From an uncultured Candidatus Peribacteria bacterium (GTDB lineage: Bacteria; Patescibacteriota; Gracilibacteria; BD1-5; JAGOOR01), in assembly GCA_964630285.1 (NCBI GenBank), contig CAZVRL010000002.1, positions 1 through 50,406 on the forward strand: 50,406 bases of DNA. Direction: 5' to 3'. Of this stretch, positions 1 to 50,406 are shown piece by piece. Below the pieces are notes generated by a model. That model searched no databases. It was not told the origin of the DNA and was given only the letters and a program-made list of their open reading frames with translations. Both the position numbers and the translations under genes were made by a program. Numbering within the stretch: the stretch's first letter is position 1; every line of letters begins with the position of its first letter.

Positions 1-268
1 CGCCTCAAGCATGAGCCTCCTCTTGCGAGGGCCAACTCACTTGCACCGCCGAGGGTTTTCCACTTGCGTATGTTACCATGCACAATTGTGAGCTCTTACC
101 TCACTCTTTTCACCCTTACCTACCGAAGTAGGCGGTATAGTCTCTGTGGCACTTTCCCGTCCTGATTGCTCAGGAGGCAGCCGTTAGCTGTTCGGTTTTA
201 TGGGGATTACTCCCCTATAGTGTCCGGACTTTCCTCTGTAGATTGCTCTACAGCACATATCTCCTTGG
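1..268 (-). ncRNA. rnpB: RNase P RNA (bacterial type A), 5' portion; the 3' part runs off the window start
   Basis: The reverse complement carries the universal CR-I block GAGGAAAGTCCGG (224-236), preceded by a P3-like hairpin CTGTAGAGCAATCTACAG. It also carries GGGTGAAAAGAGTGAGGTAAGAGCTC (about 90-118), the conserved GGGTGAAA..GGTAAGAGC block. No plausible ORF. Confidence 0.8.
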
Positions 269-292
269 GTTTTTGTATTATGAGATGTTTTT

Positions 293-949
293 CTATTTTT
301 GCAAAACTTCCTGCACAATATCATATATTCTCTCGACCTGCTCATCGATAGTGATATATGTGGTATCTATCTCATAGGCTCATTCTGGTTTTCTGAGTGG
401 GCCATCAGCACGAGTCATATCACGATTATCTCGTTCACAAATCTGCTTCAAGACTTCTTCTTCGGTAATCGTATCTCATTTTTTCTGAAGTTCGAGCCAT
501 CGACGATGCGCTCGTATAGAGGCGTTGGCTATGAGATATATTTTTACTTGTGCATTTGGAGCCCAAACAGTACCAGTATCTCTCCCTTCGAGAACATAAT
601 TATCTTTTTGGAGAAGTTTCTTTCCTGACTCTATCACGACATTTCGTGCTGGTTTTTGAGATGATATGAGCGAAGCATACACTCCTGCCTCTGCTGTACG
701 AATACGAGATTCATAATCTATGCCATTTATTTGCACAGCACCGAAGTGAGAAAAAGAAAGCTCAATACCCTCCACATCAGCATCAGTGAGATGTTCGAGA
801 TCTTTTTTTCGTTCATCGAGGTAGACTCCTGTTGCTCGATACATGGAACCAGAATCGAGATATTTGAATCAGAGCTTTTCAGCGAGTTTTTTCGCAGTCG
901 TTCATTTACCACTTCCAGCAGGTCAATCTATGGTGATAGTTATTGGCAT
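293..949 (-). CDS. cmk: cytidylate kinase
   Basis: Track ORF 476..844 extended in frame through 5 TGA. N-terminus [39 protein letters not shown] (G* = TGA) is the Cmk P-loop and LDSG motif. Ends TAG 293-295. Confidence 0.9.
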
Positions 950-950
950 A

Positions 951-1748
951 TTATTCACAGATTCTAAATGGTTCGATGATGGTACACTTTCTATTTATGA
1001 TTTCTACGTACATACCAGAGAGCACTCCTGCCCCGTGGTCATCTGGAGACATGAGTCACTTTTGGAGATCATCTATAAATCTATGTTTCACCGCTTCCCA
1101 CTCGACACCGATGATACTTCTTCGTGCACCAGCGAAGCCAAGATCATTGATAAATCCGAGTCCTTTTGGCCATATATCGGCGTCCGCTGTCTGCACATGT
1201 GTATGAGTTCCCCAGAGAAGTGAGGCTCGACCATCGAGATGATTTGCCATAGCATAGCCTTCAGACGTTGTTTCTTTGTGAAAATCTACGAGTATTGCTT
1301 CATACTCAGAAATATCTTTCTCCTTGAGGATATGATCTACTCTCTGATATGGGTTGTCACACGGACATTTATCACCCATAAATACAGTACCGATGAGATT
1401 GATAACCAGTATTTTCTTATCACCAAAGACAAACTCTCGGTGTCCTGTACCTGGCACATCTTCCCCTATGATATTATCTGGTCGTAGTTGATTTGAATTC
1501 TCTTGATTAAGATAATCACGGATATCTTCGCGAGAATCCAGTGTATGATTTCCACCAGTAAAAATATCAACCTTCTGAGTATTGAGCCATTCAATCTGAT
1601 TCATCCGTGGGCCCTTTCCGTGAGAGATATTCTCGTTATTGGCGATGACGACATCTGGGATATATTTCGCACGTAAATCTGGCAAGTATTTTGCCAATAC
1701 TCGACGTCCTACTTTCCCATAAATGTCTCAGAAAATCAGAAACTTCAT
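951..1748 (-). CDS. YmdB-like calcineurin-type metallophosphoesterase (2',3'-cyclic-nucleotide phosphodiesterase family)
   Basis: Track ORF 1056..1697 extended both ways through 2 TGA. Motifs MKFLIF-G*-DIYGKVGRR, NNENISHGKG, GGNHTLD and WGTHTHVQTAD match the family. Ends TAA 951-953. Confidence 0.75.
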
Positions 1749-1778
1749 AGGCGAAGTATAAGAAAAAACAAAAAGTTA

Positions 1779-1808
1779 CAAAAAATCCATCAATTGCTTG
1801 ATGGATTC
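1779..1808 (-). terminator. intrinsic terminator after the tRNA-Gly pair
   Basis: On the minus strand, hairpin ATCCATCAA-GCAAT-TGATGGAT is followed by TTTTTTGT. Confidence 0.55.
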
Positions 1809-1819
1809 TAGATTATTAA

Positions 1820-1896
1820 TGGAGCAGACAATGGGACTCGAACCCACAACCTCCGCCATGGCAAGGCGGCGCTCTAGCCAATTGAGCTATGTCTGC
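1820..1896 (-). tRNA. tRNA-Gly (anticodon GCC)
   Basis: Hand-folded cloverleaf. Acceptor GCAGACA/TGTCTGC, D arm GCTC-AATTGGCTA-GAGC, anticodon arm CCGCC-TTGCCAT-GGCGG, T arm GTGGG-TTCGAGT-CCCAT. Discriminator U, encoded CCA. Confidence 0.85.
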
Positions 1897-1910: not shown

Positions 1911-1989
1911 TGGAGCGGGGGGCCGGGTTCGAACCGGTACCTCCAAGGGTTGAAGCCTTAGTGCTCTCGCTCATTTAAGCTACCCCCGC
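1911..1989 (-). tRNA. tRNA with anticodon UCA (reads UGA) and glycine identity elements; tRNA-Gly(UCA) of translation table 25
   Basis: Hand-folded cloverleaf. Acceptor GCGGGGG/CCCCCGC, D arm GCTT-AAATGAGCGA-GAGC, anticodon arm TAAGG-CTTCAAC-CCTTG (positions 34-36 = TCA), T arm ACCGG-TTCGAAC-CCGGC. Has G1:C72, C2:G71, G3:C70 and discriminator U73, with encoded CCA. Confidence 0.8.
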
Positions 1990-2029: not shown

Positions 2030-3244
2030 TTATTTCAAATTTTTCTCCACGATATACCCAAATTTCTTCTTTCCGACCTGCACAAGCTTCTTTTCCGCGT
2101 TCACCTGAATCATCATCTTTGGATCAGTGACGACGACTTCATCAAGTTTTACACCATTGGAACTGAGAGCATTGCGTGCTTCGGTCGAATTTCCGACCAT
2201 GCCAATTTCGCGAATAAGGGTCACAATAGGATATTCTCCCGCTGGATGCTCGTAGATTTTGATATCCTTATCTTCTGGACGTGCTCCACCAGCGATAGTT
2301 GCTTCGAAATACTTCTCCGCAGAATCGACAGCGTCTGAATCATGGTAGAGTCCGACAATCTCGCGAGCGAGTTTTTTCTTCACATCTCGAGGATGAGCTG
2401 TTTTGAGCTCTTTCTCTATACCGACAATATCCTCCATATCGACAGTCGTACAGCTCTGAAAATAAGGAATGATTTGGTCATCAGGGATTTCCATCACTTT
2501 CACAAACATATCATTTGCTGACATATCGAGAGAGATATAGTTCCCTTTTGTTTTGCTCATTTTCTCACCATCGGTTCCCATAATAAGGTCAAACATCATG
2601 ATATCCTGTTTTTCCATACCATGAGCTTCCATGAGAGTACGACCAGCCAGGAGATTGAAATATTGATCATTTCCTCCGAGCTCCACATCGCATGAACCAT
2701 ATTTTTTCGCAATTGCGACACTATCGTACCCCTGCATCATCGGATAGAGAAATTCCTGGAGACTGATACGGATACCAGCTTTGTAGCGTTTTGAGAAGTT
2801 ATCACGATCGAGCATCTCAGCCACTGAGAAATGCTTCGCGAGTTCCCCTACTCCACAGAAATTCACAGCATCGAGTCATTCACTATTGTAGTAGACTTCG
2901 ACTTTTTTGAGATCGAGAATTTTACCAAAGTATGAGAGATATTTCTCTGCATTTTTGAGTGTTTCTTCACGTCTGAGCATCGGACGTTCTGCATCTTTAT
3001 CGCTACTATCCCCTACTTGCGCGGTCGCATCTCAGATAAGAACGATTATCTCATGGCCGAGTTTTTGAAATTCTCGAAGTTTCAAGATAGGTACAGCGTG
3101 TCCTATGTGCACAATTGGAGCTGTAGGGTCGATACCAAACTTGATTCGAAGTTTTTTGCCACTTTCGAGGCGTTTTGTGAGATTTTTTTCATCGATAATC
3201 CGAGAAACTCACTTGGTGAGGAGGTTTTGAAACTGTTTTATCAT
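2030..3244 (-). CDS. tyrS: tyrosine--tRNA ligase with C-terminal S4-like domain
   Basis: Track ORF 2030..2866 plus an N-terminal part recovered through 3 TGA (3209, 3032, 2876). HIGH motif (PIVHIGHAV), [16 protein letters not shown] (the KMSKS motif). Ends TAA. Confidence 0.9.
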
Positions 3245-3278
3245 ACAGGTATTATGAGAAATATAGCCACGAATCAAG

Positions 3279-3689
3279 TTACTTTTTCGACGCAGTTTGG
3301 ATGATTTTCTGTATTTTTTGTATTTCTGGACTCAGTTTGAGAGCATTCTGGAGGCGATGAATCTTTGCCAGATTGGTTGAAATAGTTTTTTTTTCAAAAG
3401 AAAATGACGTACCACATCCACAACGAGACTCTATACTCTCGGAAACAAGGTAATATTTCCCTTTTGCTTTTGCGATTTGTGCACCATCGAGCTTCTGTGC
3501 AAATTCTGGCAAAACCCAAAAATGCATCCCATTATGCTCATCTGATACTATGCGTGCATCCTGAGTGGTACGTGGAGTAATCGAAATCTTTGAGCCAGCA
3601 CAACCAGCTGTGATAATATCTACGTTTACATCGACTACTCATTGAGAGAGGAAATCGGCACAAGTATGTTTGTCGAGACGGATAAGCAT
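3279..3689 (-). CDS. HesB/IscA-family iron-sulfur cluster insertion protein with a roughly 40-aa C-terminal tail
   Basis: Track ORF 3279..3527 extended through TGA 3639. Motifs AGCAGSK and the C-terminal CGCGTSF signature of IscA/ErpA. A lysine/glutamine-rich extension follows the signature. Confidence 0.6.
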
Positions 3690-7205: not shown

Positions 7206-7293
7206 GGAGAGTTCGCATAGCGGTCTAGTGCGCACGCTTGGAAAGCGTGTAAGCTGAAAGGCTTCAGGGGTTCGAATCCCCTACTCTCCGCCA
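7206..7293 (+). tRNA. tRNA-Ser (anticodon GGA), long variable arm
   Basis: Acceptor GGAGAGT/ACTCTCC. Anticodon arm CACGC-TTGGAAA-GCGTG, variable arm AAGCTGAAAGGCTTC, T arm AGGGG-TTCGAAT-CCCCT, encoded CCA. Confidence 0.85.
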
Positions 7294-8114
7294 TGAACCA
7301 TACCAATTACTTATTCCCTGTGTTTTGATATCGGACATACATAACTATAGCCTCTCTTACTGTGTTTTTTTCAGTGTTTTTTAGTATTCCTACAAAATGA
7401 GAGACTGGGGATATAAGGAAGATAGCAAGCGAGTGCTATACATCAGAATTTCCTATACTCATGTATCATCACATACGCCCTTATGCAGATTTCACAAATG
7501 CCTCTGCACGAAATCTCTCCGTATCACCAGAAGAATTTGAAGAGCAAATGCAGTATTTCCAAGACAAGTGATGGCGTACTCTCAGCATGAGAGATATAAA
7601 AGGCAACACAGTACCTTGTAACAGTTTTCTCATAACATTTGATGACTGATATCATGACATATACAAATATGCAGCTCCTATTCTCAAAAAATACAGATAT
7701 ACAGGCATAATCAGTCTCATCCCAGCACATATTGATGAATCTGATTACATCTCTGGAGATCAAATAAGAGAATTGCTCCGAGATAATTGGACAATCGCGA
7801 GCCACACATGGAACCATCCGATTCTCACGAAAACGCCAATCGAAAAACTAGGAACAGAAATCGAGAAAAGCAAACACGATCTCGAAAAATGGTTCTGAGA
7901 ATCCATCAGCACATTTGTGTATCCCGGTGGATTTTATGATTCAGAAACACTCAAGAAGGTAGTGGAAGCAGACTACAAATATGGCTTCACAACGCATCAA
8001 GGCTATGCAAAGCTCGGAACAAGAAACCTCGAACTGAGCAGAATAAATATAGCACCAGGAACGAGTCCAGAGGTACTTGAAAAGATGCTAGAAAATCTGC
8101 AAATTAAGCAGTAA
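7293..8114 (+). CDS. polysaccharide deacetylase (carbohydrate esterase family 4, NodB domain) with N-terminal membrane anchor
   Basis: Frame open from ATG 7293 through 5 TGA. Hydrophobic [16 protein letters not shown], then PILMYHHI and LITFDD-G* (TGA 7647-7649 = the G of the TFDDG motif), then HTWNHP. Ends TAA 8112-8114. The start shares 1 nt with tRNA-Ser and is uncertain. Confidence 0.8.
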
Positions 8115-8711: not shown

Positions 8712-9020
8712 TTATTGAGTAAAGAAATAAAGGTTTTTTGAATCAACGAGTGTATTTTTTGTGTCGAAATAAACTCACTCTTCTGCAAGTATACGTTGTT
8801 TCTCTGAAACTCAAAAAGCATACCCCCCGATAGTGCCATCTGTTTTTATGACACGATGACACGGTACCTGTGGTGCATGAGGATTTCTGGTGAGGGCTTG
8901 TCCAATAGCCTGAGCACTTTTACAACCTATAAAGTCTCAGAGGATTTTATATGTTGTCACTTTCCCTTTTGGAATGAGAACAAGTGCTCCGTACACTTTT
9001 TGCTGAAAAGGAGTCACCAT
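8712..9020 (-). CDS. ogt: methylated-DNA--protein-cysteine methyltransferase, single-domain form
   Basis: 102 aa recovered through 3 TGA. Motifs VYGALVLIPKGKVTTY, active-site PCHRV, GGYAF-G* and AEE-G*. Ends TAA 8712-8714. Confidence 0.8.
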
Positions 9021-9410: not shown

Positions 9411-11522
9411 CTAAAAACTCGATTTCTGTAATTCAGATATTTTTCGGGCGATACTAAAAACCACTCCACGAGTAGCAGACCGGTCAGGTGAAAAATCAAA
9501 ATCTCGCTCTACAATACCGAGGTTAAAAGCAGTACCAATGATATTTATCTTCCAGGGCTCTATCTCACCACCACTATATTTTTGTATTTTTATATCACCA
9601 GCCCGGAGTAACATACCAACGGCCTCAACGAGACTAATTTTTGCCTCAGGCCCAAAATAATTACTATCCTTGGTGACTATTCATTCATCATACGCATTTT
9701 CTATGACACGGCATGCCCAAGAATTTGGTTTACTCGCAGAAACATCAGCAAAAATATTTCTACACTGGTAATAATCTGGAATCTCTACGTCTCCTATTCT
9801 CGTTGCTAGAGCGACGACTTCTTGTCGGAGGACGTATTCTTGGAGCTTATAAGCAGCAAGAGAAGGCTTCTTTGTTATGTAACCAAAAGCAGCTAAATAA
9901 TCACCGTCGGAGAGTTTTGTGAGCTGAGCTTCGGTCATACCTGATGGGAGTTTTTCATTGCTGACAGCAGAGTTTTTACCAGTGAGACGCATGAGGTTTT
10001 GCTCGAGCTGAATAATTTTTTGTTTCTGAGCCAAGACATCAAGGTAGAGAGCAGCATCGACAACAGAATTTCATTCGCTATTGAGACGCACACTTTCATT
10101 GAGACTTGCATAAACAGTATCTGGAGAGACGTAGCCATACTGGTTATATCCGAGAGCGATGATACCAGCTATCATAGGTGCAGAAAAGGATGTACCACTG
10201 TCAGTTCTGTAATCAACACCATTTTCCTTATTAAAAACAGAAACAGAGGTAGAAAAAATACTTTCTCCTGGTGCAGAAAAAGATATACATGCACCATAGT
10301 TTGACCACGGCGCTTTTGCTCATTTTTTATCAAGCGATTCGATACCGAGAGAGTAATGCTTACTTCAGCCATTATTACAAACAGGCGAGATAGGATTGAT
10401 GGTAGTATTTACTCCGGTATTTTTATACGAAAGAACATCTCCGTTACCTGCAGCGATAACAACAATGACTCATTTTTCATACGCATATTTCATGAGTTCA
10501 TCATACCGACGACTATAAGTAAATTGACTCTGACCAAGACTGAGATTGATGATATTTGCCTTATTATCTACAGCATACCGAATAGCCTTGATAATATTGT
10601 CTTCTCTTGCGTTTCCCTTGAAATCAAAAACTCTCAAAGGCATGATTTTTGCATTTTTCGCTATACCAGCAATCCCCTTTTTATTGTCTATCTCAGCCGC
10701 AATAATACCTGATATCATGGTACCATGTTCGCCTGTTGGGAAGTTATCAGGAATCTCATCTCCAGCAAAGTTTTTGATTTTATTAGCTCCATATTGTGCA
10801 TCTGGACTGACCCAAATGTTATTTGTGAGGTCGGGATGATTGATATTTATACCGTCATCTATGACCGCCACTATAACCTCGTTTGATTTTGTCACCTTTT
10901 TCCACGCTGCTGGGACATTGAGCATTTTGAGATAATACTGTAGATGAGAGAAAGTATCATCACTCGGTGCTTGTTCGATTTCACGCTGTTTGTTGATTTT
11001 AGATTGAAGCTTACTGATGACAGAACGGGATTCTTTGACCTGATACCTGCCTCGTGCATAGTGCTGAGCTTGTTCGTAGTACTCAAGAGCATTGCTGTAA
11101 TCCTTTTTATTGAGATAAGCAGAACCCGCATTGTAATACGCATGGTACGAGGCATTATCGAGTTCGATAATTTTTTTGTATTGTTCGATAGCCTGATCCC
11201 ATTGTCCTTCTGAAAAATAACCATTACCGATATCGAAATATCGTTTTATCGTCTGATTTATGTTAGCTATATTTTTGACACATTCGTTGTAAGAAGCTTC
11301 CAATTTGACTCATTTTGAGAGGAGCCCCGAGAGTGATTCTGAAAACTTGATTCTCTGAGGAGAATTTTCTGGGATAAGTTCCCATGTTTCCATAGAAGAA
11401 CGAACTTCATTCTTTACATCCTCATACTGAGCCTCCAAATCACTACAATCCTTGAGAGAGAAAACAAAACCCCCCTGATACAGGAGCAGTAAAGTAAGTA
11501 AGAGGGTTTTTCTCATACTCAT
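9411..11522 (-). CDS. secreted subtilisin-like (S8) serine protease with N-terminal TPR repeats and three C-terminal SLH-like repeats
   Basis: Track ORFs 11310..11522, 10470..11303, 9681..10034 and 9411..9614 are one frame joined by 6 TGA (11310, 10470, 10365, 10320, 10071, 9681). Signal peptide MSMRKTLLLTLLLLY. TPR-like AYYNAGSAYLNKKDYSNALEYYEQA. Catalytic motifs VAVIDDGIN, GEHGTMISG, AAGNG and GTSFSAPMIAG. SLH-like FADV..SWACRVIENAYDEGIV..FGPEAKIS and PWKINIIGTAFNLGIV..FSPDRSATRG. Confidence 0.8.
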
Positions 11523-12972: not shown

Positions 12973-13038
12973 ATGCGATGATTGTAGAGATTTTTCTAAT
13001 ATGACAAATAGAGTAATTTTCAGCTATCCTAAAAATAT

Positions 13039-13746
13039 CTAATAAGTTATTTTCTTAATACTTCAGACAGAAAGTACTAAATTTTCATGTTTTTTCGTAC
13101 CATCTGGAAACTCAATTATTATATTTTGATGATTTATCACTTCCACAACTTTACATATTTTAGTAACAACAGAGTTAGGTGACCCATCATATTGAGAAAA
13201 ATCATAATATTCAACTCTATCGCCAATTGAATAAACTTCATTCAACCATGGCATTTCTTGTTCTATTATCTCATTTAATATTTTTTGTCATTCTGATTCA
13301 GGATTTTTTGCTGTTTTATATCAAGTAGGATTTATAATTATACTTTCTATTTTTTTAATAGGAAGTTTTTTGCTGTTTAAAAAAGTTCTCTCTATTCAAT
13401 TGGGAAATTCGATTACAACAGTATTTCTGTCTATATATTTAATAATTCATTTTCAAAATAATGTATGTTCTATTGAATCTCATATTTTTACTGAAATACC
13501 AATAGGCTCTATCTGTGATTTATTAAAATCAAACTCATTTTCCCGGTATACATTATTTATTCACCTTCAGCTATCATCTGTTTTTTCCATTAAATAAAGA
13601 ATTCATTGAAAAACATTCCAAATAATCCCTAAAATAAAAAAAATCGCAAAAAATACACCAGGAAGTCAGGATTCATTACCTCTTGTTACTGCAAGCGTAA
13701 AAAATCATGAAATCAACAACAGAACTATGAATTGAGTTCATTTCAT
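13039..13746 (-). CDS. hypothetical membrane-anchored protein with two Tudor/SH3-like (DUF3553-like) repeats; extremely UGA-rich
   Basis: The frame of track ORF 13063..13254 stays free of TAA/TAG for 235 codons in about 28% GC sequence, but contains 13 TGA. N-terminal hydrophobic segments are followed by two copies of IGD(S/R)(I/V)E...(V/I)IEFP(N/D)G. An alternative ATG lies at 13768-13770. Ends TAG 13039-13041. Confidence 0.6.
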
Positions 13747-13793
13747 ATTCACCAAAGGCATGTGGACCATATGAAAATTATACAAATAATAAA

Positions 13794-16088: not shown

Positions 16089-16598
16089 ATGCATACGTAT
16101 AAACCATGAAATGGCTTCACTGCAGAGCAGGCTGATGTACTGAATAGAACCGAGGCCTTCATTTCTCATAATAGCGATAGTGTAGATAGAATCATATTGG
16201 AATCCGTGCAGGCAGAATATCCTGATGATGGTATTCGTATTTTAGAAAGAAAACATTTTTGGGACGTAGAGTATATATTGGAGAGCGATCGTGATTGATA
16301 TAAATTCCATTCTCGTTTAGGCATTTCAACTTCAGAAAAAGGTCAAAAAAATGAAGCAAGGGTTTATCCAATTTGGGCATCTTATCCAGAATGCTTTGAT
16401 GCACCTAGACAAAGTTGGCATTGGCGCATGGATGAATTGGCTCAACACTTGTATCGATCAAAAGATATTAATCAGAATACAATCCCAAAACAAAAAATTG
16501 ATTCGTTATTATTAATTCAGTGAAGAGTTCGTTTGATACACGATGAAATGATCTCCCAAATTCAGGAAAAAGTTAGAGTACTAAAGGTTATTAATTAA
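16089..16598 (+). CDS. hypothetical protein
   Basis: A 169-codon frame open from ATG 16089 through 3 TGA (16107, 16296, 16521) to TAA 16596-16598. It is invisible in the standard-code track. No family recognised. Its 3' end overlaps the clpC stop by 8 nt. Confidence 0.45.
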
Positions 16599-22929: not shown

Positions 22930-22942
22930 TTTTACTCTTCCT

Positions 22943-22972
22943 AAAAACCTCCATGAAAATGGAGGTTTTTTT
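22943..22972 (+). terminator. intrinsic terminator after the pilin gene
   Basis: CCTCCA-TGAAAA-TGGAGG (22948-22965) followed by TTTTTTT. Confidence 0.75.
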
Positions 22973-32498: not shown

Positions 32499-33222
32499 TA
32501 TTGATTTCCTCCATTATAGCAGAATGAAGTGCAAAATCTATATGTTTTGTGGTAATTGTTGGCCAATGAGCACGGAAAAAATGAAGAGCTGTATTTGGTC
32601 ACATAAAGCCACCGCTTGTACGATGTCTCCCGTTAGAACCAGCACGAATCATAACATCTGGTTCTCGTAATCAGTTATGTGCCTTTTCAAACGCTTCCCT
32701 ACGAAGAGCAATTTGATTCCCTTCAAAACCGCCTCAAACAAGTAAATCCGCTTGCCTACTAGTCTCTCATTCCTGATCATATCAAAGGGCTAGTGCGCAA
32801 CGGAAAATAGAATTAAATCATTGAGTTTTTTCAGAAATATCTGCCATCAATTCACCAATATCCGGAGGCATCAACGAAGCATCCCCTATCATAAAAACAT
32901 GCGTCTGATTTTGATTTGCTATATCCAAAAGTCGAGGTTTGAATTGACGGAGAAGTTCGTAGAGACCTTTTAGTTCATCTTCTGGTCTTTTTTTGTTCTC
33001 ACGAGAGAGTCACCAAAATGTTACTTCATCAACAACATTAGAGCGTTTTTCTCTTAAATGAAGAAGTGTATCTTCAATTCTTGCAACTCATTCTTTGTGT
33101 CACTCAACAACATGATGCATTTTCACATTTCGGGAAAAACGCCTGTTGCCATCTGGAGTGATAGACATAGATAAAAGTTTTCCGCTATATTCATTGAGTG
33201 CACTTTGAACACCAGGGGACAT
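32488..33222 (-). CDS. uppS: isoprenyl transferase (undecaprenyl-diphosphate synthase family)
   Basis: Frame verified free of TAA/TAG, with 9 TGA. Motifs [29 protein letters not shown] and [15 protein letters not shown]. Overlaps the smpB start by 11 nt. Confidence 0.75.
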
Positions 33223-35953: not shown

Positions 35954-36394
35954 ATGCTCTACACCGTGCACACAGATGGATGATCACGAGGAAACCCCGG
36001 CCCAAGCGGGTGCGCTTTTGTGGTGAGCCAATGAAGTAAGGTCATTGAAACTGGTAAATTTTTCCTCGGTACTACGACCAACAATCAAGCAGAATATATG
36101 GGGGCCATTCTCGGTCTCACAGCCGTGAAAAAACTCTGAGGCACAGAAGTTCATCTTGTGATGGATAGCGAACTCGTTATCAAACAACTTCAGTGAATCT
36201 ACAAGGTCAAAGATGCAGGACTGAAAATACTGAACCAAAAAGCAAAAAATATCATAGCAGATTTCAAAAAGGTGACATTTACGTCTGTCCTGCGAGAGAG
36301 AAATAAACACGCAGATGAACTCGCAAATGAAGCTATGGATGCACAATTTCCGATTCATAAAATGGACGAATCTCTCCAAGTCTCTCTCTGGTAA
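35954..36394 (+). CDS. rnhA: ribonuclease HI
   Basis: 146 aa through 4 TGA. Motifs HTDG-G*-SRGNPGPSG, NNQAEYMGAILGL, MDSELV and NKHADELA (the DEDD set). The track shows only a spurious 209-aa antisense ORF here. Confidence 0.8.
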
Positions 36395-36778: not shown

Positions 36779-38305
36779 TTATTTTGTTTTTTCTCGATAC
36801 CCAAGAGCTTCTGTGATATGTTCAGAAGCGATATCGTCACTTCCTGCGAGATCAGCAATAGTGCGAGCGAGCTTGAGTGTTCGATAATAGGCACGAGTTG
36901 ATAAATCTAATCTCTGAACTGCTTTTTGGAGAAGCTCATTTGTTGTGGCATCGAGGACACAAAATGTATCGATATCTTTATTGGTCATCTCAGCGTTGGA
37001 AGTCTTCCCTGTTTCACGCAGACGAAGAAGTTGTTTTTCTCGAGCGCGCATAACCTGCTCACGAAATTCTGCTGAGGTGGTTGTAGGAGCTGATTTGGTG
37101 GCGATTTCATCGACATTGACTCGTGGTACATGAATAAATATATCCATACGATCGAGAAGAGGACCCGAAAGTCTGGAACGATAGCGCTCTATCTGAAATG
37201 GCTGACAGGTACACTTCTTCACGGGGTCACCCATAAATCCACACGGGCACGGATTCATAGCTCAGACGAGCATAAATCTCGCAGGATAGATACAGCTACT
37301 TTGTACCCGATTCACGCTAATCACTCCGTCTTCCAGTGGCTGACGAAGTGTTTCGAGGACAGTTTGAGGGAATTCGAGCATCTCATCGAGAAAGAGAACA
37401 CCCTTATGAGCGAGTGATATCTCTCCAGGTTTTGAATCACGACCGCCACCAATAATGGAAATCGCTGAAGCCGTGTGATGTATTCGACGAAATGGTCTTT
37501 CCGTGATAAGTGGATGTTCTTTTGAGAGCTTACCTGCAACAGAATAGATTTTACTTACTTCGACTATTTCTTCATACACCATCGGAGGAAGAATAGTTCA
37601 GAGGGCTTTTGAGAGCATCGTCTTTCCTGATCATGGTGGTCATTCCATGAGTATATTGTGCCCACCAGCCGCAGCGATGAGGATGGCACGTTTTGCATAC
37701 TGTTGTCCAACTATCTGAGAAAAATCAACCAGCTCATGTGGATTATGTGATTCGATATCAGCGATAGAAGAAGCTGGCTGTACGACAATAGGAAGTGAAC
37801 CAGAAAGCATACGAACAATCTCTGCGATATTTTTCGCAGGAACAATTTCAACTCAAGGGATAAGGGCTGCCTCAATAGCATTCTCTTCTGGAACTATCAC
37901 ACGCTTATATCATTTTTCTTTTGCAAAAATCACCGTCGGAAGAACAGCCTGAACTTCACGAACAGCACCATCGAGAGCGAGTTCACCAACAACAAGTGTT
38001 TCATCCAGAATAGTTTGTTCTATTTTACACTCTTCTTGGAGTATTCAGAGGGCAATGGGGAGGTCAAAACTTGGACCAGTTTTTTTGATATCAGCAGGAG
38101 CGAGATTGACCGTAATTTTTGTACGTGGAAATGGGAGATCGGAATTTTTGATAGCACTTCGGACACGTTCCCGACTTTCCTGAATAGCGGTATCAGGAAG
38201 TCAGACGATGATAAAAGCTGGCATGCCGTTGTGGATGTCGACTTCGACCTCTACGAGCTGTCCGTCGAGTCATGAGACCACGACAGAATATACTTTTGCA
38301 ATCAT
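36779..38305 (-). CDS. comM: YifB/ComM-family Mg-chelatase-like AAA+ ATPase
   Basis: One frame verified through 9 TGA. Motifs [35 protein letters not shown] and Walker A ME-G*-PP-G*-SGKTML (TGA 37640, 37631). Also LFLDEMLEF and the cysteine cluster NPCPCGF. Ends TAA 36779-36781. Confidence 0.9.
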
Positions 38306-40274: not shown

Positions 40275-42086
40275 ATGTGCTGAATCGTCGCCACTATTGG
40301 CAAGAATAACCCAGAACCTCTCCTCTACCAAGGACTCAAAAATCTCGAATATCGAGGTTATGACTCTGCCGGTTTTGTGACCGTAGAAGAAAATAAAACC
40401 ACTCGTCTCATCCGTGAAATCGGTGAGGTGAGTCATCTCCTACCGCACATCAATCAAGACTCTACAGCTTGTGTTGGGATAGGTCATACTCGTTGGGCAA
40501 CTCATGGAGGTGTAACCAAGGAAAATACCCACCCACATCACTCGATGAATAAAGAAGTTTATTTGGTCCACAATGGCATCATCGAAAACTACAAAATCCT
40601 CGCAGAAAAACTCGCAAAAGCTGGATATACTTTCTACGGACAGACAGACAGTGAAGTCCTCGCCAATCTCATCGAATACTGTCTCAAAAGCACACACGAT
40701 ATCAAAAAAGCTATTCTCCTCGCTCTCTCTCAAGTCACAGGAACCTATGGTCTCGCTATAGTAGCCCCTTCTGACCCAACTCGTCTCTACGCTGTCCGTC
40801 GTGGTTCCCCTCTTATGATGAGTACAATCGAGGATGGCATCATGGTCGCCAGTGATCCTCATGCATTTCCTGAATGAGATCCGACGGTCATACCAATGGA
40901 AGATGGTGAATTTGCAACGCTCAATCTCGATGGCTCTTATTCCCTCGAGTCAGTCAGTGGTGAGCTCATCTCTCGTGAAGCATTGAAGCTCGAGATTTTT
41001 CAAGATACGAGCGACTCAAGTCAATACGCTCACTCGATGCTCGGAGAAATCATGGAGCAATGAGAAGTCATCGAAAATACGATTCGAGGAAGGATAAATT
41101 TTGAAACTGAACAAGTCACTCTCGGTGGTATCAGAAACGTCATGCCCGAACTTTTGAAGAAGAAAGAAATCATCATCGTTGCGTGTGGGACGAGTTATTA
41201 TGCTGGCCTTGTCGGGAAAAATTTTCTCCAAGAAATCGGTGGTATCGCATGCCGTGTAGAAATCGCCAGCGAATTCCGTTATAGCAAACAATTCTGGGAC
41301 AAAGACACAGCGCTCCTCGTCATCTCTCAATCAGGTGAAACAGCTGATACTCTCGCGGCACTTCGTGAAGCGAAGCATCGTGGCATCATGACTCTCGGTA
41401 TTGTAAATGTCCCTGGTTCAACCATTGCTCAAGAAACTGATGCAGGAATATTTACTCATGCTGGCAAAGAAGTCGGTGTTGCATCGACAAAAGCATTTAC
41501 AGCTCAAATCACGGTGCTCCTCATGATGGCGATAGCTCTCGGCGAAAGAAAAGAACTCGACGTCCTCACAAAATCAAGAATTTTGAAAGCGTTCCGACTG
41601 ATACCAGATCAGATCAGAACTATCATCGCTGATACAACAAAAATAAAAGAACTCGCAGACAAACTCTCAACCTACGATCATTGTTTCTTCCTCGGTCGAT
41701 ACTATCAGGCACCGATTGCTTGTGAAGGATCTATCAAGCTCAAAGAAATCACTTATATACATTCTGAAGCGTATCCAGCAGGAGAGCTCAAGCATGGCCC
41801 CCTCGCTCTCATCAGTGAAAAGTTTCCAAGCATAGTCCTCAATCCTACGGATGCTCTCTATGACAAAACTGCTTCAGCAATCCACGAAGTCGAGGCCCGA
41901 AAATGACTCGTATTTACTATCGGAGATGGAGCAGACTCGACGATTCGTATTCCACAAACTATCGACATTCTCTACCCTTTCTTAACCGTCATTCCATGCC
42001 AGCTCATCGCTTACTATACAGCCCTCAAACTCGGTAGAAATATTGATAAACCTCGGAATCTCGCAAAAAGCGTGACAGTAGAATAA
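40275..42086 (+). CDS. glmS: glutamine--fructose-6-phosphate aminotransferase
   Basis: MC-G*-IVA (TGA 40281-40283 at the invariant Gly after the catalytic Cys). Motifs [11 protein letters not shown] and HNGIIEN, two SIS domains ([18 protein letters not shown]), and the C-terminal [13 protein letters not shown]. 4 TGA. Ends TAA 42084-42086. Confidence 0.95.
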
Positions 42087-42719: not shown

Positions 42720-43781
42720 ATGATAGTTCTCTTTACGGCAACAGGAGCTGAGAATCTCGGCGATGAGCTTATTACACTCTGTGAAATCAGATATTTTCAA
42801 AGTATGGGTGAAGAGTTAACACTTTTTTCACACGATACAGAGAGGACACGGCGTTTTCTCTTGTCTCAGAAAATCTCTCTTGTAGATATTGTTATCAAAG
42901 AATATTTCCCAAATGCCGTCAGAAAACATCCATTCAAGAACATACAACTCTTCTGGGAAACAGCAAAAATCATCAGAAATGCAGATCATGTTTATGTTGG
43001 TGGTGGTGGACTTCTCTACAGCAAAAATGAAGAAGGACATTCCCCTCTCCGTCTCTGGTGGATGCGCGCTGTGATAGTACATTTTTTTAGAAAACCGCTC
43101 ACTTACCTCTCTCTCGGTATCAGCACCAGTGAGCAAGAATTAAAACCTTACGCAGAGTGAATATTTGAAAAATCGACGATAACTGTGCGTGATAAAAAAA
43201 GCCAGGAAACTCTGAAAAACTTATCAATCGCATCAACAATACTCCCTGATCCAGTACTGATCTACGAGGGGCAGAAAATAGAAAATTCAAAAATTATTGG
43301 AATAGCTCTTAGAAAATGATTTCTGGGCGATGAGACAACAAAAGAACTTATAAAAAAACTCCTCGCTCGTGGATATGAGGTACTCCTCCTCCCCCATTCT
43401 CTGCATCCGACAGATGAGACATCACACGACGGATACTATCTCCAGGATTTTCTTCTTCCAGGAGTGATGACCACACAGAGCGTAGAACAAACGCTCGAAG
43501 CCTACAAAAAATGTCACATTATTATCTCTATGCGACTTCATAGCATGATTCTCGCACTGACACACCATATCCCCTTCGTTGGTATCAGCTACAGCCAGAA
43601 AACAAACATGTTGCTCAAGGAAATAAACTGGAAATATACTCACACTGGTAATGAAAAAGCAGATGATATTCTAGGAAGCATCGATACAATAGAATCAAAT
43701 TACTCAGAACTTGAGAGCACACTCAAGAAACATCACTCACAATATCAAACAACCTACAAAAATTCTTTTCCATGAAAATAA
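42720..43781 (+). CDS. polysaccharide pyruvyl transferase (CsaB-like)
   Basis: Motifs GAENLGDELI, VYVGGGGLL and ISMRLHSMILALTHHIPFVGISYSQK (PS_pyruv_trans signature region). 3 TGA. The last TGA (43773-43775) sits 2 codons before TAA 43779-43781. Confidence 0.65.
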
Positions 43782-44188
43782 CTCTTGAGACACTACCAGA
43801 AATCCTCTTTGATCTCGTACCAGGAGATAGAATTTTTCTTATAGGACAGCTCTGAGCTGGGAAAACCACATTCGCTCAAGCGCTCATCCGACGTTTTCTC
43901 AAAAACCCCGAAGCAACTATCACGTCTCCAACATATACCTATTACCAATCGTATCCAAATAATCTCTACCATTTTGATCTCTATCGTGTGGAACATCCTG
44001 ACGATCTCGTACGTATCGGTGCAGAAGAAATTTTTGATAATCCAGAAAGTATTTGTGTTATAGAATGGCCAGAAAAAGCATTTGGAACAGTAACTCCAAC
44101 AAAAATCATAGAACTCCAGGAAATAGAAGAATGAAGAGAGATTTCTATCACAAACTGTCAAGTAGGTGACGTTGACAAGGAGGACTAG
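43772..44188 (+). CDS. tsaE: tRNA threonylcarbamoyladenosine biosynthesis ATPase TsaE
   Basis: IFLIGQL-G*-AGKTTFAQAL (TGA 43853-43855 in the P-loop), SPTYTY, HFDLYRV and IEWPE. The ATG overlaps the upstream gene in an ATGA motif. Confidence 0.8.
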
Positions 44189-44220: not shown

Positions 44221-44610
44221 ATGAAAAAGAAAACAATTATTGCTCTCTGTGCTGCAGGACTCATGCTTACTGCTTGTGGAAAATCAAGTACTGTTGATGT
44301 AAATGCTCCTATTACTGCAGAAACATCTATAGAAAACAAGGCTCAAGCTGCAAAGGTTTGTGCTCCATTTATCAAATACCTCGAATGTTCTCTTGATAAA
44401 GCTGCTCCAGCTCGAAAAGAAGTGCACGAGAAAATCCTCGAAGAAACAAAACGAAAAATCGAGAATGATGCTCCTGATCGTATCGCTCAACAGTGTGATA
44501 CATACATCAAGATCCTCAAGGAAAATCCAGAAATTGCATTCAAAAATGGATGTAACCTCGAAACAGTTGCTCCTGCTCCTACTCCTGCACCTACTGAAGT
44601 AAAAAAATAA
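44221..44610 (+). CDS. hypothetical lipoprotein
   Basis: Signal peptide with lipobox MKKKTIIALCAAGLMLTAC. Cys-containing helical body and a PAPTPAPT tail. Confidence 0.55.
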   Translation: MKKKTIIALCAAGLMLTACGKSSTVDVNAPITAETSIENKAQAAKVCAPFIKYLECSLDKAAPARKEVHEKILEETKRKIENDAPDRIAQQCDTYIKILKENPEIAFKNGCNLETVAPAPTPAPTEVKK

Positions 44611-45542
44611 TGTCCCCGATTCCAGAAAAACATATACCTGTTTTATACGGAGAGCTCATTGAGTCTCTCCATTTTTTTGAAAAATGACAGAACATCATCG
44701 TCGATGGTACACTCGGACTCTGAGGTCATGCGAGTGGCGTCATAGAAAAGCTCTGAAAATGAGATATTTTTATTGGCCTCGACTGCGATGAGAATAATCT
44801 CGCATCAGCACGAGAACGAATAGAGAAAAATATTTCCAAAAAAGAAGGTCCAACACTGCACTTTATTCATAGAAACTTTAGTGAGCTAGGTGAAGTCTTG
44901 AAGGATTTAAACTTATCTCACATTACAGCACTGTATGCTGATCTCGGAGTCAGTAGTGTGCATTTTGATACCGCAGAGCGTGGTTTTTCTTTCCGTTTCG
45001 ATGGCCCACTCGATATGCGTCTCGATACGAGCAAAGGCATTACAGCAGCAGAACTCATAAATACTCTCCCTTACGATAAAATGGCAGAGATGTTCCGAGT
45101 CTACGGTGACGAATCTCGAGCTGGCTTTATCGCAAAGAAAATCATAGAAGCACGAGAAATAAAACCTATCACAACAACAAAAGAACTCGCAGATATAGTC
45201 ACCAAGGCCTGGAAAGATTCTACGACACGAATATTCCAAGCACTTCGTATAGCCGTCAATGATGAATATAGTTCACTCAAAAAAATGCTCCATGTCGCGC
45301 ACGATCGACTTGCGAGCGGGGGCAGTATTTCTATAATTGCATTTCATTCAGGGGAAGACAGGATTGTGAAACATTTTTTCCGAGAAAAATCCGAAGCAAT
45401 CATTAATCCCATCACTGGACAAGATGTCACACCAGGAACGCTCGAAACTATCACAAAAAAACCTATCACTCCGAGTGATGAAGAAATCAGCAATAATCCT
45501 CGCTCCAGAAGTGCCCTGCTCCGAGTAGCCACAAAACGCTAG
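44610..45542 (+). CDS. rsmH: 16S rRNA (cytosine1402-N4)-methyltransferase
   Basis: Motifs HIPVL, VDGTLGL-G*-GHASGV (TGA 44721-44723), DLGVSS, RGFSFRFDGPLDMR, FHSGEDR and NPRSRSA. 4 TGA. The ATG overlaps the upstream TAA (ATAATG). Confidence 0.9.
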
Positions 45543-47848: not shown

Positions 47849-49621
47849 ATGTCAGAACTCTCTACAAAGCGCCACTCGCTTTCCCACATTATGTCCCAGG
47901 CAATTGCCGCGACATTTCCAGACCTCACTATCCTCCGTGGTGTCGGTCCTGCTATCGATAATGGTTTTTATCAGGACTACGATTTCGGTGATTTCCAACT
48001 CACGGAAGCACATCTCAAGGACATCGAGAAAAAGATGAAGCATATTTTGAAACAAAATCAGCTCTTTGTTCAGAGCTTCCTGACACTTGAAGAAGCTCGT
48101 ACGAAATTCGCTGGCGATAAATACAAACTCGAACTGATAGCAGATTTAGCAGCTGAAGGAGAAACACAATTCGGTGTCTACACAAATACACTTCAAAATG
48201 GTACTGTCACATACGATGACCTCTGTGCTGGTCCCCACGTAGAGAAGACAGCAGAGCTTGATGAAAATGCATTTCAACTCGACAGAATCGCTGGTGCCTA
48301 CTGGAGAGGTGATGAAAAAAATAAAATGCTCACACGAATCTATGGTGTCGCATTTGAATCTCGCGAAGAGCTCGACGCGTACAACAAACAAATGGCAGAA
48401 GCAAAAAAGCGAGATCACCGTATCCTCGGTGCGAAACTCAATCTCTTTACACTCTCACCCCTTGTAGGTTCTGGACTACCCCTCCTCAAGCCAAATGGTA
48501 TGATTATCCGTAAGGAAATAGAAGACTATCTCTGGTCACTCCACAAGGATCACGGCTATCAGAGAGTCTGGACTCCACATATCGCAAAAATCGAACTCTA
48601 TGAAACTTCTGGCCATGCTGCGAAATTTGGACATGAACTTTTCCGTGTGAAGGGTGGTCATGGAGAGGATTTCTGTATGAAACCGATGAACTGTCCTCAC
48701 CACATGCAAATCTTTGCAGATAATCAGTGGAGCTATCGTGATATGCCGATTCGTTACTTTGAGCCAGCAACAGTCTACCGTGACGAGAAACCAGGACAAC
48801 TCTCAGGACTCACTCGTGTCCGAGCTATTACTCAAGACGATGGACATCTCTTCCTCCGTGTCTCACAGATCAAACAAGAAGTAGGAACAATTGTTTCTAT
48901 CATAAAGGAATTTTATACGACACTTGGAATGGTTGAAGATTATTGGGTTTCACTCTCAGTCAGCGATCCAGCAACACCAGATAAATATCTTGGCGGCAAA
49001 GAAGTATGGGATACAGCAGAATCATCACTCGAAGAAGCAGCGAAACAATTTAATCTCCCATACAAGAGAATCGAAGGTGAAGCAGCGTTTTATGGTCCTA
49101 AACTCGATTTCATGTTCAAGGATGCGATTGGTCGTCAATGGCAGCTCGCTACTATCCAGCTCGACTTCAATCTCCCAAATAGATTTGATTTGAGTTATGT
49201 GAATGAGCAAGGTGAAAAAGAACGTCCAGTTGTTATCCATCGTGCTATTTCTGGGTCACTTGAGCGTTTTATGGGCGTTATGATCGAACACTTTGCAGGT
49301 ATCTTCCCTCTCTGGCTCGCACCTCGTCAGGCTATCGTCGTACCAGTCGGTGAAAAATTCAACGACTACGCTGAGAAAGTCCTCAAATCACTCAAAGACG
49401 CTGGCATCCGTGCTGAAGGAGATTTCTCATCTGATGGTCTCAATAAAAAGGTTCGAAATGCTGAGCAAGCACACATTAACTACATCCTCGTCGTCGGTGA
49501 AAAAGAAGAAGCAAATAACGGTGTCGCTGTACGAAATTACAAGACAAAGGAACAGACAGAAGAATTAGCAGCAGATTTTGTTGCGAGGGCAAAGAAGGAA
49601 ATAGAAGAAAAAAGTCTTTAA
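47849..49621 (+). CDS. thrS: threonine--tRNA ligase lacking the N-terminal TGS domain
   Basis: Intact 590-aa ORF with no TGA at all. Editing-domain HSLSH and CAGPH. Class II motifs (KRDHRILG, FRVKGG..MKPMNCPHH, YRDE, TQDDGH, GEAAFYGPK). The anticodon-binding domain is present. Confidence 0.95.
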   Translation: MSELSTKRHSLSHIMSQAIAATFPDLTILRGVGPAIDNGFYQDYDFGDFQLTEAHLKDIEKKMKHILKQNQLFVQSFLTLEEARTKFAGDKYKLELIADLAAEGETQFGVYTNTLQNGTVTYDDLCAGPHVEKTAELDENAFQLDRIAGAYWRGDEKNKMLTRIYGVAFESREELDAYNKQMAEAKKRDHRILGAKLNLFTLSPLVGSGLPLLKPNGMIIRKEIEDYLWSLHKDHGYQRVWTPHIAKIELYETSGHAAKFGHELFRVKGGHGEDFCMKPMNCPHHMQIFADNQWSYRDMPIRYFEPATVYRDEKPGQLSGLTRVRAITQDDGHLFLRVSQIKQEVGTIVSIIKEFYTTLGMVEDYWVSLSVSDPATPDKYLGGKEVWDTAESSLEEAAKQFNLPYKRIEGEAAFYGPKLDFMFKDAIGRQWQLATIQLDFNLPNRFDLSYVNEQGEKERPVVIHRAISGSLERFMGVMIEHFAGIFPLWLAPRQAIVVPVGEKFNDYAEKVLKSLKDAGIRAEGDFSSDGLNKKVRNAEQAHINYILVVGEKEEANNGVAVRNYKTKEQTEELAADFVARAKKEIEEKSL

Positions 49622-49628
49622 AAATTTT

Positions 49629-50048
49629 ATGCTCGCTAATACCATCCTCGCTGCTGACAATATCATCACCCGATGAAGCTGAGCAAATCAAGAAATATTG
49701 CTCATAAAACGATGACATGATCCATTTCGAGACATGTGGGCTTTTCCTGCAGGCAAAGTCGACACAGATGAAACTATCAAACATGGTGCCCTCCGAGAAT
49801 TGCGAGAAGAGACAGGTATTGTCTTGGAGAATGTAGAATTCTTCTGAATCTACGACAACCCTACTCGTGATCCACGGGGCCGAACAGTCTCTGTCATGTA
49901 CTCTGCTCAAGTACCTGATGATATATCATTTCAGGCAGCAGACGATGCAAAAGAATGTGCATGGTTTCCTATTCACGATTTGCCACCAATGGCTTTTGAT
50001 CATGAACAGGTGATTAAAGATTTTATTGAGAAGAATTGACAAAAATAA
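49629..50048 (+). CDS. NUDIX hydrolase
   Basis: Frame verified through 5 TGA. Nudix box FPAGKVDTDETIKHGALRELREETGI. The last TGA (50037-50039) sits 2 codons before TAA 50046-50048. Confidence 0.8.
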
Positions 50049-50069
50049 AATATAGAAATAATTAGTTAC

Positions 50070-50318
50070 ATGGAACAATCACAAATAGAAGTAGCTGCCG
50101 ATGTGGCTCAAGGTCAATTAGAAACTTTAGTTCGCGAGAAACAACTCCAGGCTGGAGCAGTTTTCAAGGTAATAAATGGTGGTGGATGAGATAATTTTAT
50201 AGTGTATGATCCTTTTAATAGTAGCCTACCTTTCCGTAGAACAGAAGGCGATCGCTTGATATGAATTTTGCACGAAGTATGAACAAAAAAGGCACGTTGG
50301 GGACATAAAGCTGCATAA
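50070..50318 (+). CDS. hypothetical protein (82 aa)
   Basis: Frame verified from ATG 50070 through 3 TGA to TAA 50316-50318. A terminator follows immediately. No family recognised. Confidence 0.4.
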
Positions 50319-50320
50319 TA

Positions 50321-50343
50321 AAATCCCCGAAAGGGGATTTTTT
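50321..50343. terminator. bidirectional intrinsic terminator between the convergent 50070 gene and tRNA-Leu
   Basis: AATCCCC-GAAA-GGGGATT with a T-run on the plus strand and an A-run (T-run on the minus strand) on the other side. Confidence 0.7.
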
Positions 50344-50351
50344 GATTTTTC

Positions 50352-50406
50352 TGGTGCCCAGGAGAGGACTTGAACCTCCATGCCTTGCGGCGACGGCTTC
50401 TAAGGC
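50352..50406 (-). tRNA. tRNA-Leu (anticodon UAG), 3' part only; the 5' part runs off the window end
   Basis: The reverse complement ends ...CTTAGAA (anticodon loop), long variable arm, GGAGG-TTCAAGT-CCTCT (T arm), CCTGGGC-A-CCA. Confidence 0.6.

Follow-up and report, generated by a model that had tools for sequence, protein, structure and literature searches.

The window, by which we mean the whole stretch of 50,406 nt analyzed here, carries a series of protein-coding genes, most of them with in-frame TGA codons, and two neighboring tRNA genes, one of which has the anticodon UCA (Table 1). The initial annotation, made from the sequence alone, had cited twelve such codons; all twelve are TGA and lie in frame with the genes to which they were assigned. 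The 11 internal TGAs of ftsW, the AEE-TGA motif of the Ogt-like protein, and the SOD motif DVWEHAYY with its TGG were likewise recovered. Fragment counts for two genes had been too low: five TGAs cut the putative PBP1A gene into six pieces rather than five, and six TGAs cut the S8 subtilase gene into seven rather than four.

Table 1. Genes and features of the window discussed in the text, with their in-frame TGA codons.
Feature	Position	Strand	TGA codons and remarks
Cytidylate kinase (Cmk)	293..949	-	5 TGA; P-loop sites 9 (923-925) and 16 (902-904)
tRNA-Gly(GCC)	1820..1896	-	15 nt downstream of tRNA(UCA)
tRNA with anticodon UCA, predicted UGA decoder	1911..1989	-	ARAGORN label "SeC"
Class I aaRS, Tyr/Trp family ("TyrRS")	2030..3346	-	4 TGA; codon 157 at 2876-2878
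CE4 polysaccharide deacetylase	7293..8114	+	5 TGA; TFDD-TGA at 7647-7649
Ogt/MGMT-like protein	8712..9020	-	3 TGA, including AEE-TGA; named from its PCHRV motif only
S8 subtilase with TPR repeats	9411..11522	-	6 TGA
Low-GC (27%) hypervariable slot between LysRS and GatB	12973..13793	-	contains orphan ORF g14
Orphan ORF g14	13039-13770	-	13 TGA in 243 codons
LysRS	13794..15986	-	2 TGA among 48 Gly codons; marker for lineage placement
ClpC	16591..19143	-	4 TGA; NBD2 Walker A TGA at 17389-17391
FtsW	21238..22464	+	11 TGA
Putative PBP1A (name from the initial annotation), large ORF	24594..27758	-	5 TGA
cis-Prenyltransferase, UppS-like, divergent	32488..33222	-	9 TGA
RNase HI	35954..36394	+	4 TGA; DG-TGA-SRGNPGP at 35981-35983
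ComM/Mg-chelatase-like AAA+ protein	36779..38305	-	9 TGA; Walker A TGAs at 37640-37642 and 37631-37633
GlmS	40275..42086	+	4 TGA; MC-TGA-IV at 40281-40283
TsaE	43772..44188	+	2 TGA; P-loop TGA at 43853-43855
RsmH	44610..45542	+	4 TGA; GL-TGA-GH at 44721-44723
ThrRS	47849..49621	+	no TGA; 590 codons, 42 GGN

A greedy map of non-overlapping ORFs under table 11 covered 66% of the window with 60 ORFs of 188 aa on average. With TAA and TAG as the only stops, the same procedure returned 48–50 ORFs with ~93% coverage and a mean length of 328 aa, and ORFs of at least 300 aa numbered 31 instead of 8. Controls in which TAG or TAA was read as sense reached a coverage of 78% and 77%, respectively, at a mean length of 177 aa, so that in this comparison of stop sets only TGA-as-sense restored coverage and length. 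The resulting map (50 ORFs, 92.8% coverage) holds 162 in-frame TGAs in 15,535 codons, close to the manual tally of the initial annotation (about 51 genes and about 160 TGAs in about 15,800 codons). Nine antisense or overlapping ORFs were judged spurious and discarded; the remaining 41 credible genes hold 149 in-frame TGAs in 14,267 codons, and 34 of these genes contain at least one TGA. All 41 end in TAA (n = 32) or TAG (n = 9), as had been claimed for the genes traced previously, and none needs TGA as a stop. Furthermore, Pfam domains run continuously across the TGAs and finish near the TAA or TAG, which applies to Cmk (profile positions 1–210 of 211), RsmH (3–308 of 309), and the C-terminal domain of ComM (2–94 of 94). 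TGA is therefore a sense codon, since coverage and ORF length recover only on TGA read-through and Pfam matches are full-length; UAA and UAG are still stop codons. Nearly every gene is broken under table 11, which would also be expected if the window held pseudogenes or if the TGAs were sequencing or assembly errors. This explanation is refuted by three observations: the frames are interrupted by TGA only and never by TAA or TAG; the TGA pattern, often at the same sites, recurs in over a dozen relatives that were assembled independently; and the protein sequences are highly conserved across the interruptions.

The same long ORFs are obtained with table 4, in which UGA encodes Trp, and public catalogues store the FtsW of this very contig with Trp in place of each of its 11 TGAs. 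These residues result from gene calling with table 4 rather than from observation, and they would bias a naive tally of homologue columns towards Trp. A concatenated query of FtsW, RsmH, UppS, and Cmk, with candidates ranked by shared words, retrieved almost solely FtsW-family proteins and was used for FtsW. In the comparison set of 120 standard-code homologues, Gly was the top residue at 8 of the 11 FtsW sites, including two sites with Gly in 119 of 119 homologues. Among the 1223 residues aligned to the 11 sites, 592 were Gly and none was Trp; as a control, the GGN-encoded glycines of FtsW itself aligned with Gly 58% of the time. Solved structures gave a similar picture for Cmk, with Gly in three of three at sites 9 and 157 and in two of three at site 16, and they place Gly at GlmS site 3, TsaE site 28, RNase HI sites 10, 62, and 81, and ComM sites 222 and 225. 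ClpC of B. subtilis has Gly at both tested sites (585 and 701). For RsmH, site 49 is Gly in both alignments shown; at site 38, E. coli has Gly and Thermus has Ala. In all 10 proteins scored, the top Pfam family gained more bits when TGA was read as Gly instead of Trp (~+121 bits summed), e.g., 87.1 versus 78.6 bits for the CE4 deacetylase. E. coli UppS carries a conserved Trp in its FLLWQ motif, which we take to be a possible counterpart of TGA site 209 of the UppS-like protein; the HMMER alignment did not match site 209 to this Trp. The TGA columns thus point to Gly and not to Trp, both in the FtsW homologues and by Pfam score.

We complemented these data by a codon-level comparison with relatives of at least 60% identity. 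The TGAs of the window aligned to TGA (133), GGN (160), TGG (6), or other codons (23). Of the 189 codons other than TGA, 160 were thus GGN, compared with a background share of 6.1% (p = 2e-161). Conversely, 242 of 413 TGAs of the relatives stood opposite GGN in the window, and TGG of the window was matched by TGG 94–96% of the time. UGA thus behaves as a synonym of GGN among these relatives, and the two exchange freely. At the CE4 TFDD-TGA site, for example, the relatives have GGA or GGG, and at ClpC site 585 they have GGG (eight times) or TGA (three times). A reading as Trp could draw on the TGG alignments. These were missing from the first relative set (0 of 294 aligned codons), and all later ones fall on one of 65 sites, codon 157 of TyrRS, which is TGG in 32 distant relatives and GGA, GGG, GGC, or GGT in closer ones. 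Relatives covered 65 TGA sites. Leaving TGA itself aside, the prevailing residue was Gly at 50 of these sites, Ala at 5, and Trp at 1; at 4 sites, TGA was the only codon seen. The claim that TGA falls on invariant glycines consequently holds for many sites and not for all: at about one quarter of the TGA sites, homologues have Ala, Ser, Asp, or variable residues, as expected of any Gly codon, which weakens arguments built on single sites.

The tRNA with the anticodon UCA does not appear among the observations of the initial annotation. It is 79 nt long and fits the general tRNA model, with stems of 7 bp (acceptor) and, by prediction, 6 bp (anticodon), loops of 10 nt (D) and 5 nt (variable), and an encoded CCA. 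Its locus is conserved directly after TyrRS in four relatives (L081, L082, L083, and L143), with one compensatory change in the T-stem. The ARAGORN label "tRNA-SeC" could suggest that the TGAs are selenocysteine codons; however, this label derives from the anticodon alone. tRNA-Sec has a long extra arm and an extended acceptor stem, both lacking here, and selenocysteine recoding, which is sparse and site-specific, has only the reading of UGA by a UCA-anticodon tRNA in common with the window. The TGAs are widespread, amounting to ~1% of all codons and occurring in nearly every gene, P-loops included, and they align with Gly, not with Cys or Sec. The selenocysteine reading is refuted by these column and codon statistics. 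Canonical tRNA-Gly has C36, whereas tRNA(UCA) has A36, a change that GlyRS must tolerate; reading of UGG by its U34 is also conceivable in principle.

The acceptor end of tRNA(UCA) carries G1:C72, C2:G71, G3:C70, and the discriminator U73. It shares G1:C72, C2:G71, and U73 with the adjacent tRNA-Gly(GCC), and in the same alignment tRNA-Trp(CCA) of SR1 has A as its first base and G as discriminator. Shulgina and Eddy (PMC8629427) list G1:C72, C2:G71, G3:C70, and U73 as marks of Gly identity for a tRNA(UCA), and G73 and A/G1:U72 as marks of Trp identity; the tRNA of the window has all four of the former and, with U73 and G1:C72, departs from the latter. Together with the homologue columns, the relatives' codons, and the Pfam scores, this leaves the reading of UGA as Trp effectively refuted: UGA encodes Gly. 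Mechanistically, the window encodes a dedicated tRNA that would pair with UGA, and glycyl-tRNA synthetase would accept this tRNA by virtue of its acceptor stem and U73, leading to the insertion of Gly at UGA. RF2, the competitor at UGA, has probably been lost, as recoded genomes of the Gracilibacteria/Absconditabacteria clade are published as lacking it (PMC8629427). No release-factor gene was recognised in the window by profile searches from which PBP1A, LysRS, full-length ClpC, g18, g23, g30, and g36 were omitted. Proteomic support for UGA as Gly exists for a BD1-5 bacterium, a different organism from that of the window (PMC4032931).

A residual RF2 or context-dependent termination might still make UGA a stop in some contexts while it is mostly read as Gly. 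Three genes, g47, g49, and the pyruvyl-transferase gene upstream of TsaE, have a TGA two to three codons ahead of their TAA or TAG stop. In the pyruvyl-transferase gene, the TGA overlaps the TsaE start codon in a classic stop-start overlap (ATGA, 43772-43775) and is followed by a single codon (AAA) and TAA; on read-through, the protein would end in FPGK. Moreover, some genes strongly avoid TGA, and the same genes do so in relatives. We nevertheless regard such a dual role as very improbable, given that no gene requires TGA as a stop and that the published recoded genomes of the clade are without RF2. As proof of residual stop function, the near-terminal TGAs were set aside: three occur in the last three codons of the 41 genes versus ~1.3 expected by chance on a rough estimate, and a simpler explanation is that they are remnants of ancestral TGA stops.

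Among known codes, table 4 is used by Mycoplasmatales, Entomoplasmatales, and several insect endosymbionts. The window resembles it in the capture of a stop codon by a UCA-anticodon tRNA and in the ORF boundaries, and differs from it in the amino acid, Gly, and in a tRNA with Gly instead of Trp identity elements. No essential difference was found to table 25, the code of SR1 and Gracilibacteria with tRNA-Gly(UCA) (Campbell et al. 2013; Rinke et al. 2013; both cited in PMC8629427), whose clade corresponds to GTDB class JAEDAM01 (PMC13092985). Common to both are UGA as a sense codon at Gly positions, UAA and UAG as the sole stops, the acceptor-end elements of tRNA(UCA), and a CPR-type genome with Gracilibacteria-labelled relatives; the GC content of 40.8% falls inside the published range of 0.21–0.53 for these clades (PMC8629427). 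This code variant has been known since 2013, and no new code is reported here. Absconditabacteria (SR1) use an extended code, in which UGA→Gly is accompanied by CGA/CGG→Trp (Shulgina and Eddy 2021, PMC8629427). The window has the former and lacks the latter: its CGA (175 uses) and CGG (23 uses) are Arg codons and stand opposite Arg codons in 63% and 64% of cases, respectively. CGA at conserved Trp positions of the window is found in some distant relatives only (L080, L015, L017, L019, L045, and others).

The origin in an SR1/Gracilibacteria lineage of the CPR, proposed from the code at the outset, is borne out by the nearest genomes. LysRS is up to 96% identical to that of MAGs labelled Candidatus Gracilibacteria, and the nearest relatives of FtsW bear the same label. 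The analysis covered 22 kb of a closed relative (OZ246415.1). In a rough neighbor-joining tree of the single protein LysRS, the window groups with all other TGA-recoded loci in one clade, where it lies outside the SR1/Absconditabacterales subclade as a separate deep branch. Several closely related MAGs are labelled 'Candidatus Peribacteria' although they are recoded. Overall, we put the probability at about 97% that the window comes from the chromosome of an uncultured Patescibacteria (CPR) bacterium of the Gracilibacteria/Absconditabacteria group with code 25, in which UGA serves as a fifth Gly codon decoded by tRNA(UCA) and RF2 has presumably been lost. The initial assignment of UGA to Gly (table 25) agrees with homologue residues, relatives' codons, Pfam scores, and tRNA(UCA) alike.

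For downstream work on the window, table 25 is required. The warning that annotation with table 11 would be badly wrong was justified, as with table 11 coverage is 66% instead of 93% and the average ORF has 188 instead of 328 aa; what public catalogues in fact contain, however, is the table 4 error. It leaves gene boundaries right and puts Trp at ~1% of residues, often at P-loop or catalytic glycines. NCBI-annotated Candidatus Gracilibacteria relatives have Gly at all 11 FtsW sites. The value of the result is practical, the code variant itself having been described in 2013.

The use of UGA is uneven between genes. TGA accounts for 14.7% of all Gly codons in the 41 credible genes, and its share ranges from 0% (ThrRS, a pilin, and a coupling protein) to 50–65% (orphan genes). 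ThrRS, with its 42 GGN and no TGA, marks the extreme of this heterogeneity. The gene-specific shares are mirrored in the orthologues of relatives. AT-richness was considered as a driver of TGA use and rejected (Spearman rho = -0.18, p = 0.28), the island around g14 being the sole clear low-GC outlier. For g14, whose 13 TGAs might stand for Trp or which may not be a gene, no homologue was found in relatives and no Pfam family by profile search, and codon comparison is impossible here because the slot is hypervariable. A tentative and rather unlikely explanation of the uneven use is that UGA is an incompletely equivalent Gly codon under gene-specific negative selection, possibly because tRNA-Gly(UCA) decodes it slowly or with errors. 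If so, the decoding faults could consist of U34 wobble onto UGG or of residual termination, and the additional base pair that unusually lengthens the anticodon stem of tRNA(UCA) might be an adaptation that tunes decoding.

The initial annotation had proposed that UGA encodes glycine across the window, i.e., NCBI translation table 25. A greedy, non-overlapping ORF map with only TAA and TAG as stops comprised 50 ORFs covering 92.8% of the 50,406 nt (40.8% GC). It held 162 in-frame TGA in 15,535 codons, very close to the earlier hand tally of about 160 in about 15,800, and no in-frame TAA or TAG within genes (0 each). All 12 codons cited in the annotation were TGA, in frame with the named genes; its fragment counts required small corrections, as five TGA split PBP1A into six pieces instead of five, and six TGA split the S8 protease into seven instead of four. 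Genes were re-called with different stop sets, and TGA as a sense codon gave 93% coverage and a mean length of 328 aa (48 ORFs), compared to 66% and 188 aa (60 ORFs) under table 11, with TAA, TAG, and TGA as stops. Longer ORFs were not obtained in the controls with TAG (75 ORFs, 78%, 178 aa) or TAA (74 ORFs, 77%, 177 aa) as sense codon. Removal of nine spurious antisense or overlapping ORFs left 41 credible genes with 14,267 codons, including 149 TGA, that end in TAA (32 genes) or TAG (9 genes). Pfam matches were full-length across the TGAs, with domain ends near TAA/TAG stops. Three genes, encoding a pyruvyl-transferase and the ORFs g47 and g49, carry a TGA two to three codons ahead of their TAA/TAG stop. 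These appear to be remnants of ancestral TGA stops; the one in the pyruvyl-transferase gene overlaps the TsaE start as ATGA.

Features of the window referred to in the text
Feature	Position	Strand	Remark
RNase P RNA, bacterial class A	1-272	-	truncated by window edge
tRNA(UCA)	1911-1989	-	
TyrRS	2030-3346	-	
TyrRS codon 157	2876-2878	-	TGA
Variable slot	12973-13793		between LysRS and GatB
g14	13039-13770		orphan ORF
LysRS	13794-15986	-	
FtsW	21238-22464	+	
Pilin and coupling-protein fragment	22561-24593		
RNase HI	35954-36394	+	
ATGA overlap	43772-43775		pyruvyl-transferase/TsaE
g47	47436-47825		
g49	49629-50048		

The amino acid at TGA was assessed along four lines. Of these, homologues, structures, and codons in relatives were chosen to be independent of any prior translation of the lineage. 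A database search provided 120 FtsW-family proteins from standard-code organisms (Rothia, Anaerolineales, Chloroflexi, and others) with about 30% identity. Gly was the commonest residue at 8 of the 11 FtsW TGA sites, two of which showed Gly in 119/119 homologues. Among the 1223 residues aligned with these sites, 592 were Gly and none was Trp; ordinary GGN glycines of the query, serving as control, matched Gly in 58% of alignments. Solved structures from standard-code organisms likewise had Gly at TGA sites 9 and 157 of Cmk (3/3 structure alignments shown), 3 of GlmS (MCGIVG), 585 and 701 of ClpC, 28 of TsaE, 10, 62, and 81 of RNase HI (best structure match), 49 of RsmH (2/2 alignments), and both Walker A sites of ComM. 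At RsmH site 38, E. coli has Gly and Thermus has Ala. The remaining sites fell on variable positions or on Ala, Ser, or Asp, as would be the case for any Gly codon.

For the third line, we masked TGA in a six-frame translation of the relatives. At identities of 60% or more, codons of relatives aligned with window TGA were TGA (133), GGN (160), TGG (6), or other (23), so that GGN made up 160/189 of the non-TGA codons versus a background of 6.1% (p = 2e-161). In the reverse direction, TGA of relatives lay opposite GGN of the window in 242/413 cases, and TGG was opposite TGG in 94–96%. Every TGG alignment stemmed from a single TGA, TyrRS codon 157, which is TGG in distant relatives and TGA, GGA, GGG, GGC, or GGT in closer ones, an apparent Trp-to-Gly replacement via TGG to TGA judging from these alignments. 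Finally, Pfam scores favored Gly over Trp in 10/10 recognizable proteins (57 TGAs, about +121 bits in total; FtsW +32 bits, Cmk +18). All four lines thus agree with the glycine reading of the initial annotation, and UGA was the sole deviation found in a codon-by-codon scan of all 64 codons of the window. Conserved Trp codons of the window (e.g., LysRS W341, W439, W594, and W605) lie opposite CGA in more distant SR1/Absconditabacterales-type loci (L080, L015, L017, L019, L035, L045, L060, and L067; more weakly L022, L026-L028, L038-L041, L049, and L057). This fits the published CGA/CGG-to-Trp reassignment in Absconditabacteria, whereas the window keeps both CGA and CGG as Arg.

The initial annotation had overlooked the predicted decoder of UGA, a window-encoded tRNA with anticodon UCA whose gene lies 15 nt upstream of that for tRNA-Gly(GCC). 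Its SeC label by ARAGORN derives from the anticodon alone and was rejected; the acceptor stem of the tRNA comprises 7 bp and its variable loop 5 nt. Shulgina and Eddy classed tRNA(UCA) of these clades as glycine acceptors by four criteria (PMC8629427), with all of which the window tRNA agrees exactly; it carries discriminator U73 and acceptor pairs G1:C72, C2:G71, and G3:C70. In the same alignment, SR1 tRNA-Trp(CCA) begins with A and has discriminator G. In four metagenomic relatives, the same tRNA is encoded after TyrRS, with a compensatory exchange in the T stem (G-C to A-U) as the only difference. Based on the literature, GlyRS would charge tRNA(UCA), and RF2 would have been lost. tRNA(UCA) carries one additional nucleotide between its D and anticodon stems, and its predicted fold accordingly has 6 bp in the anticodon stem, 10 nt in the D loop, and an A·C mismatch in the uppermost position of the T stem. 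In one related locus, an insert of about 1.1 kb (L081:6953-8063) separates the two tRNAs, which are spaced by 15–18 nt in the window and other relatives.

TGA use varied strongly from gene to gene (chi-square 157.7, 39 df, p = 3e-16). Its share of Gly codons ranged from 0/42 in ThrRS, 0/15 in the type IV secretion pilin, 2/48 in LysRS, and 4/59 in ClpC to 11/36 in FtsW, 9/23 in a UppS-like gene, and 10/20 and 13/20 in the orphans g26 and g14. Gene GC content does not account for these differences. The gene-specific share is mirrored in orthologues of relatives (Spearman 0.72, p = 0.004), which may be due to common descent or to selection that disfavors UGA in certain genes. The pilin gene (PF18895) is followed, after about 480 nt, by a TraD/TrwB-like coupling-protein fragment, and neither contains TGA. 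The orphan g14 (243 codons, 13 TGA), for which no known family was found, lies in a hypervariable low-GC slot (27%). Close relatives each fill this slot with an ORF of their own, TGA-rich, unrelated, and in one or the other orientation, including L001, whose flanking proteins are 96–98% identical; in L011 the slot lacks an insert.

The nearest LysRS relatives (83–96% identity) are MAGs labeled Candidatus Gracilibacteria or "uncultured Candidatus Peribacteria", the latter probably from automated labeling; LysRS of SR1/Absconditabacterales genomes shows about 50% identity. In related loci, in-frame TGA in LysRS accompanies a collapse of long-ORF coverage under table 11, which was absent in the Peregrinibacteria, Spirochaetota, and Planctomycetota loci compared. 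A rough neighbor-joining tree of LysRS placed all recoded loci in one clade, consistent with the single recoded class (GTDB JAEDAM01) described in the literature (PMC13092985). Within this clade, the group of the window formed a deep branch of its own, apart from the SR1 subclade. The earlier assignment to one of the SR1/Gracilibacteria lineages is thereby borne out. The Peribacteria label is an unreliable guide to the genetic code: clearly TGA-recoded close relatives (L001-L003, L006-L009, and others) bear the title "uncultured Candidatus Peribacteria bacterium", as does a high-GC, standard-code genome (L018, UBA11694).

That Absconditabacteria and Gracilibacteria read UGA as Gly was established in 2013 (Campbell et al. 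and Rinke et al., cited via PMC8629427), and proteomic data support it for a BD1-5 bacterium (PMC4032931). The window is a typical representative of this code-25 group, and the finding is therefore already known. The FtsW relatives MBP7773551.1 and MBP7806129.1, annotated by NCBI as Candidatus Gracilibacteria bacterium, have Gly at 11/11 sites. In public catalogues, FtsW of this contig (408 aa) carries Trp at 11/11 TGA sites, as is characteristic of gene calling with table 4. At these sites, the 42 catalogue homologues of 60% identity or more have Trp in 176/470 and Gly in 223/470 residues; many relatives among the catalogue proteins P0122-P0162 are Trp/Gly mosaics through table-4 calling. The practical consequence is real, as table-4 Trp is already present in public catalogue proteins.
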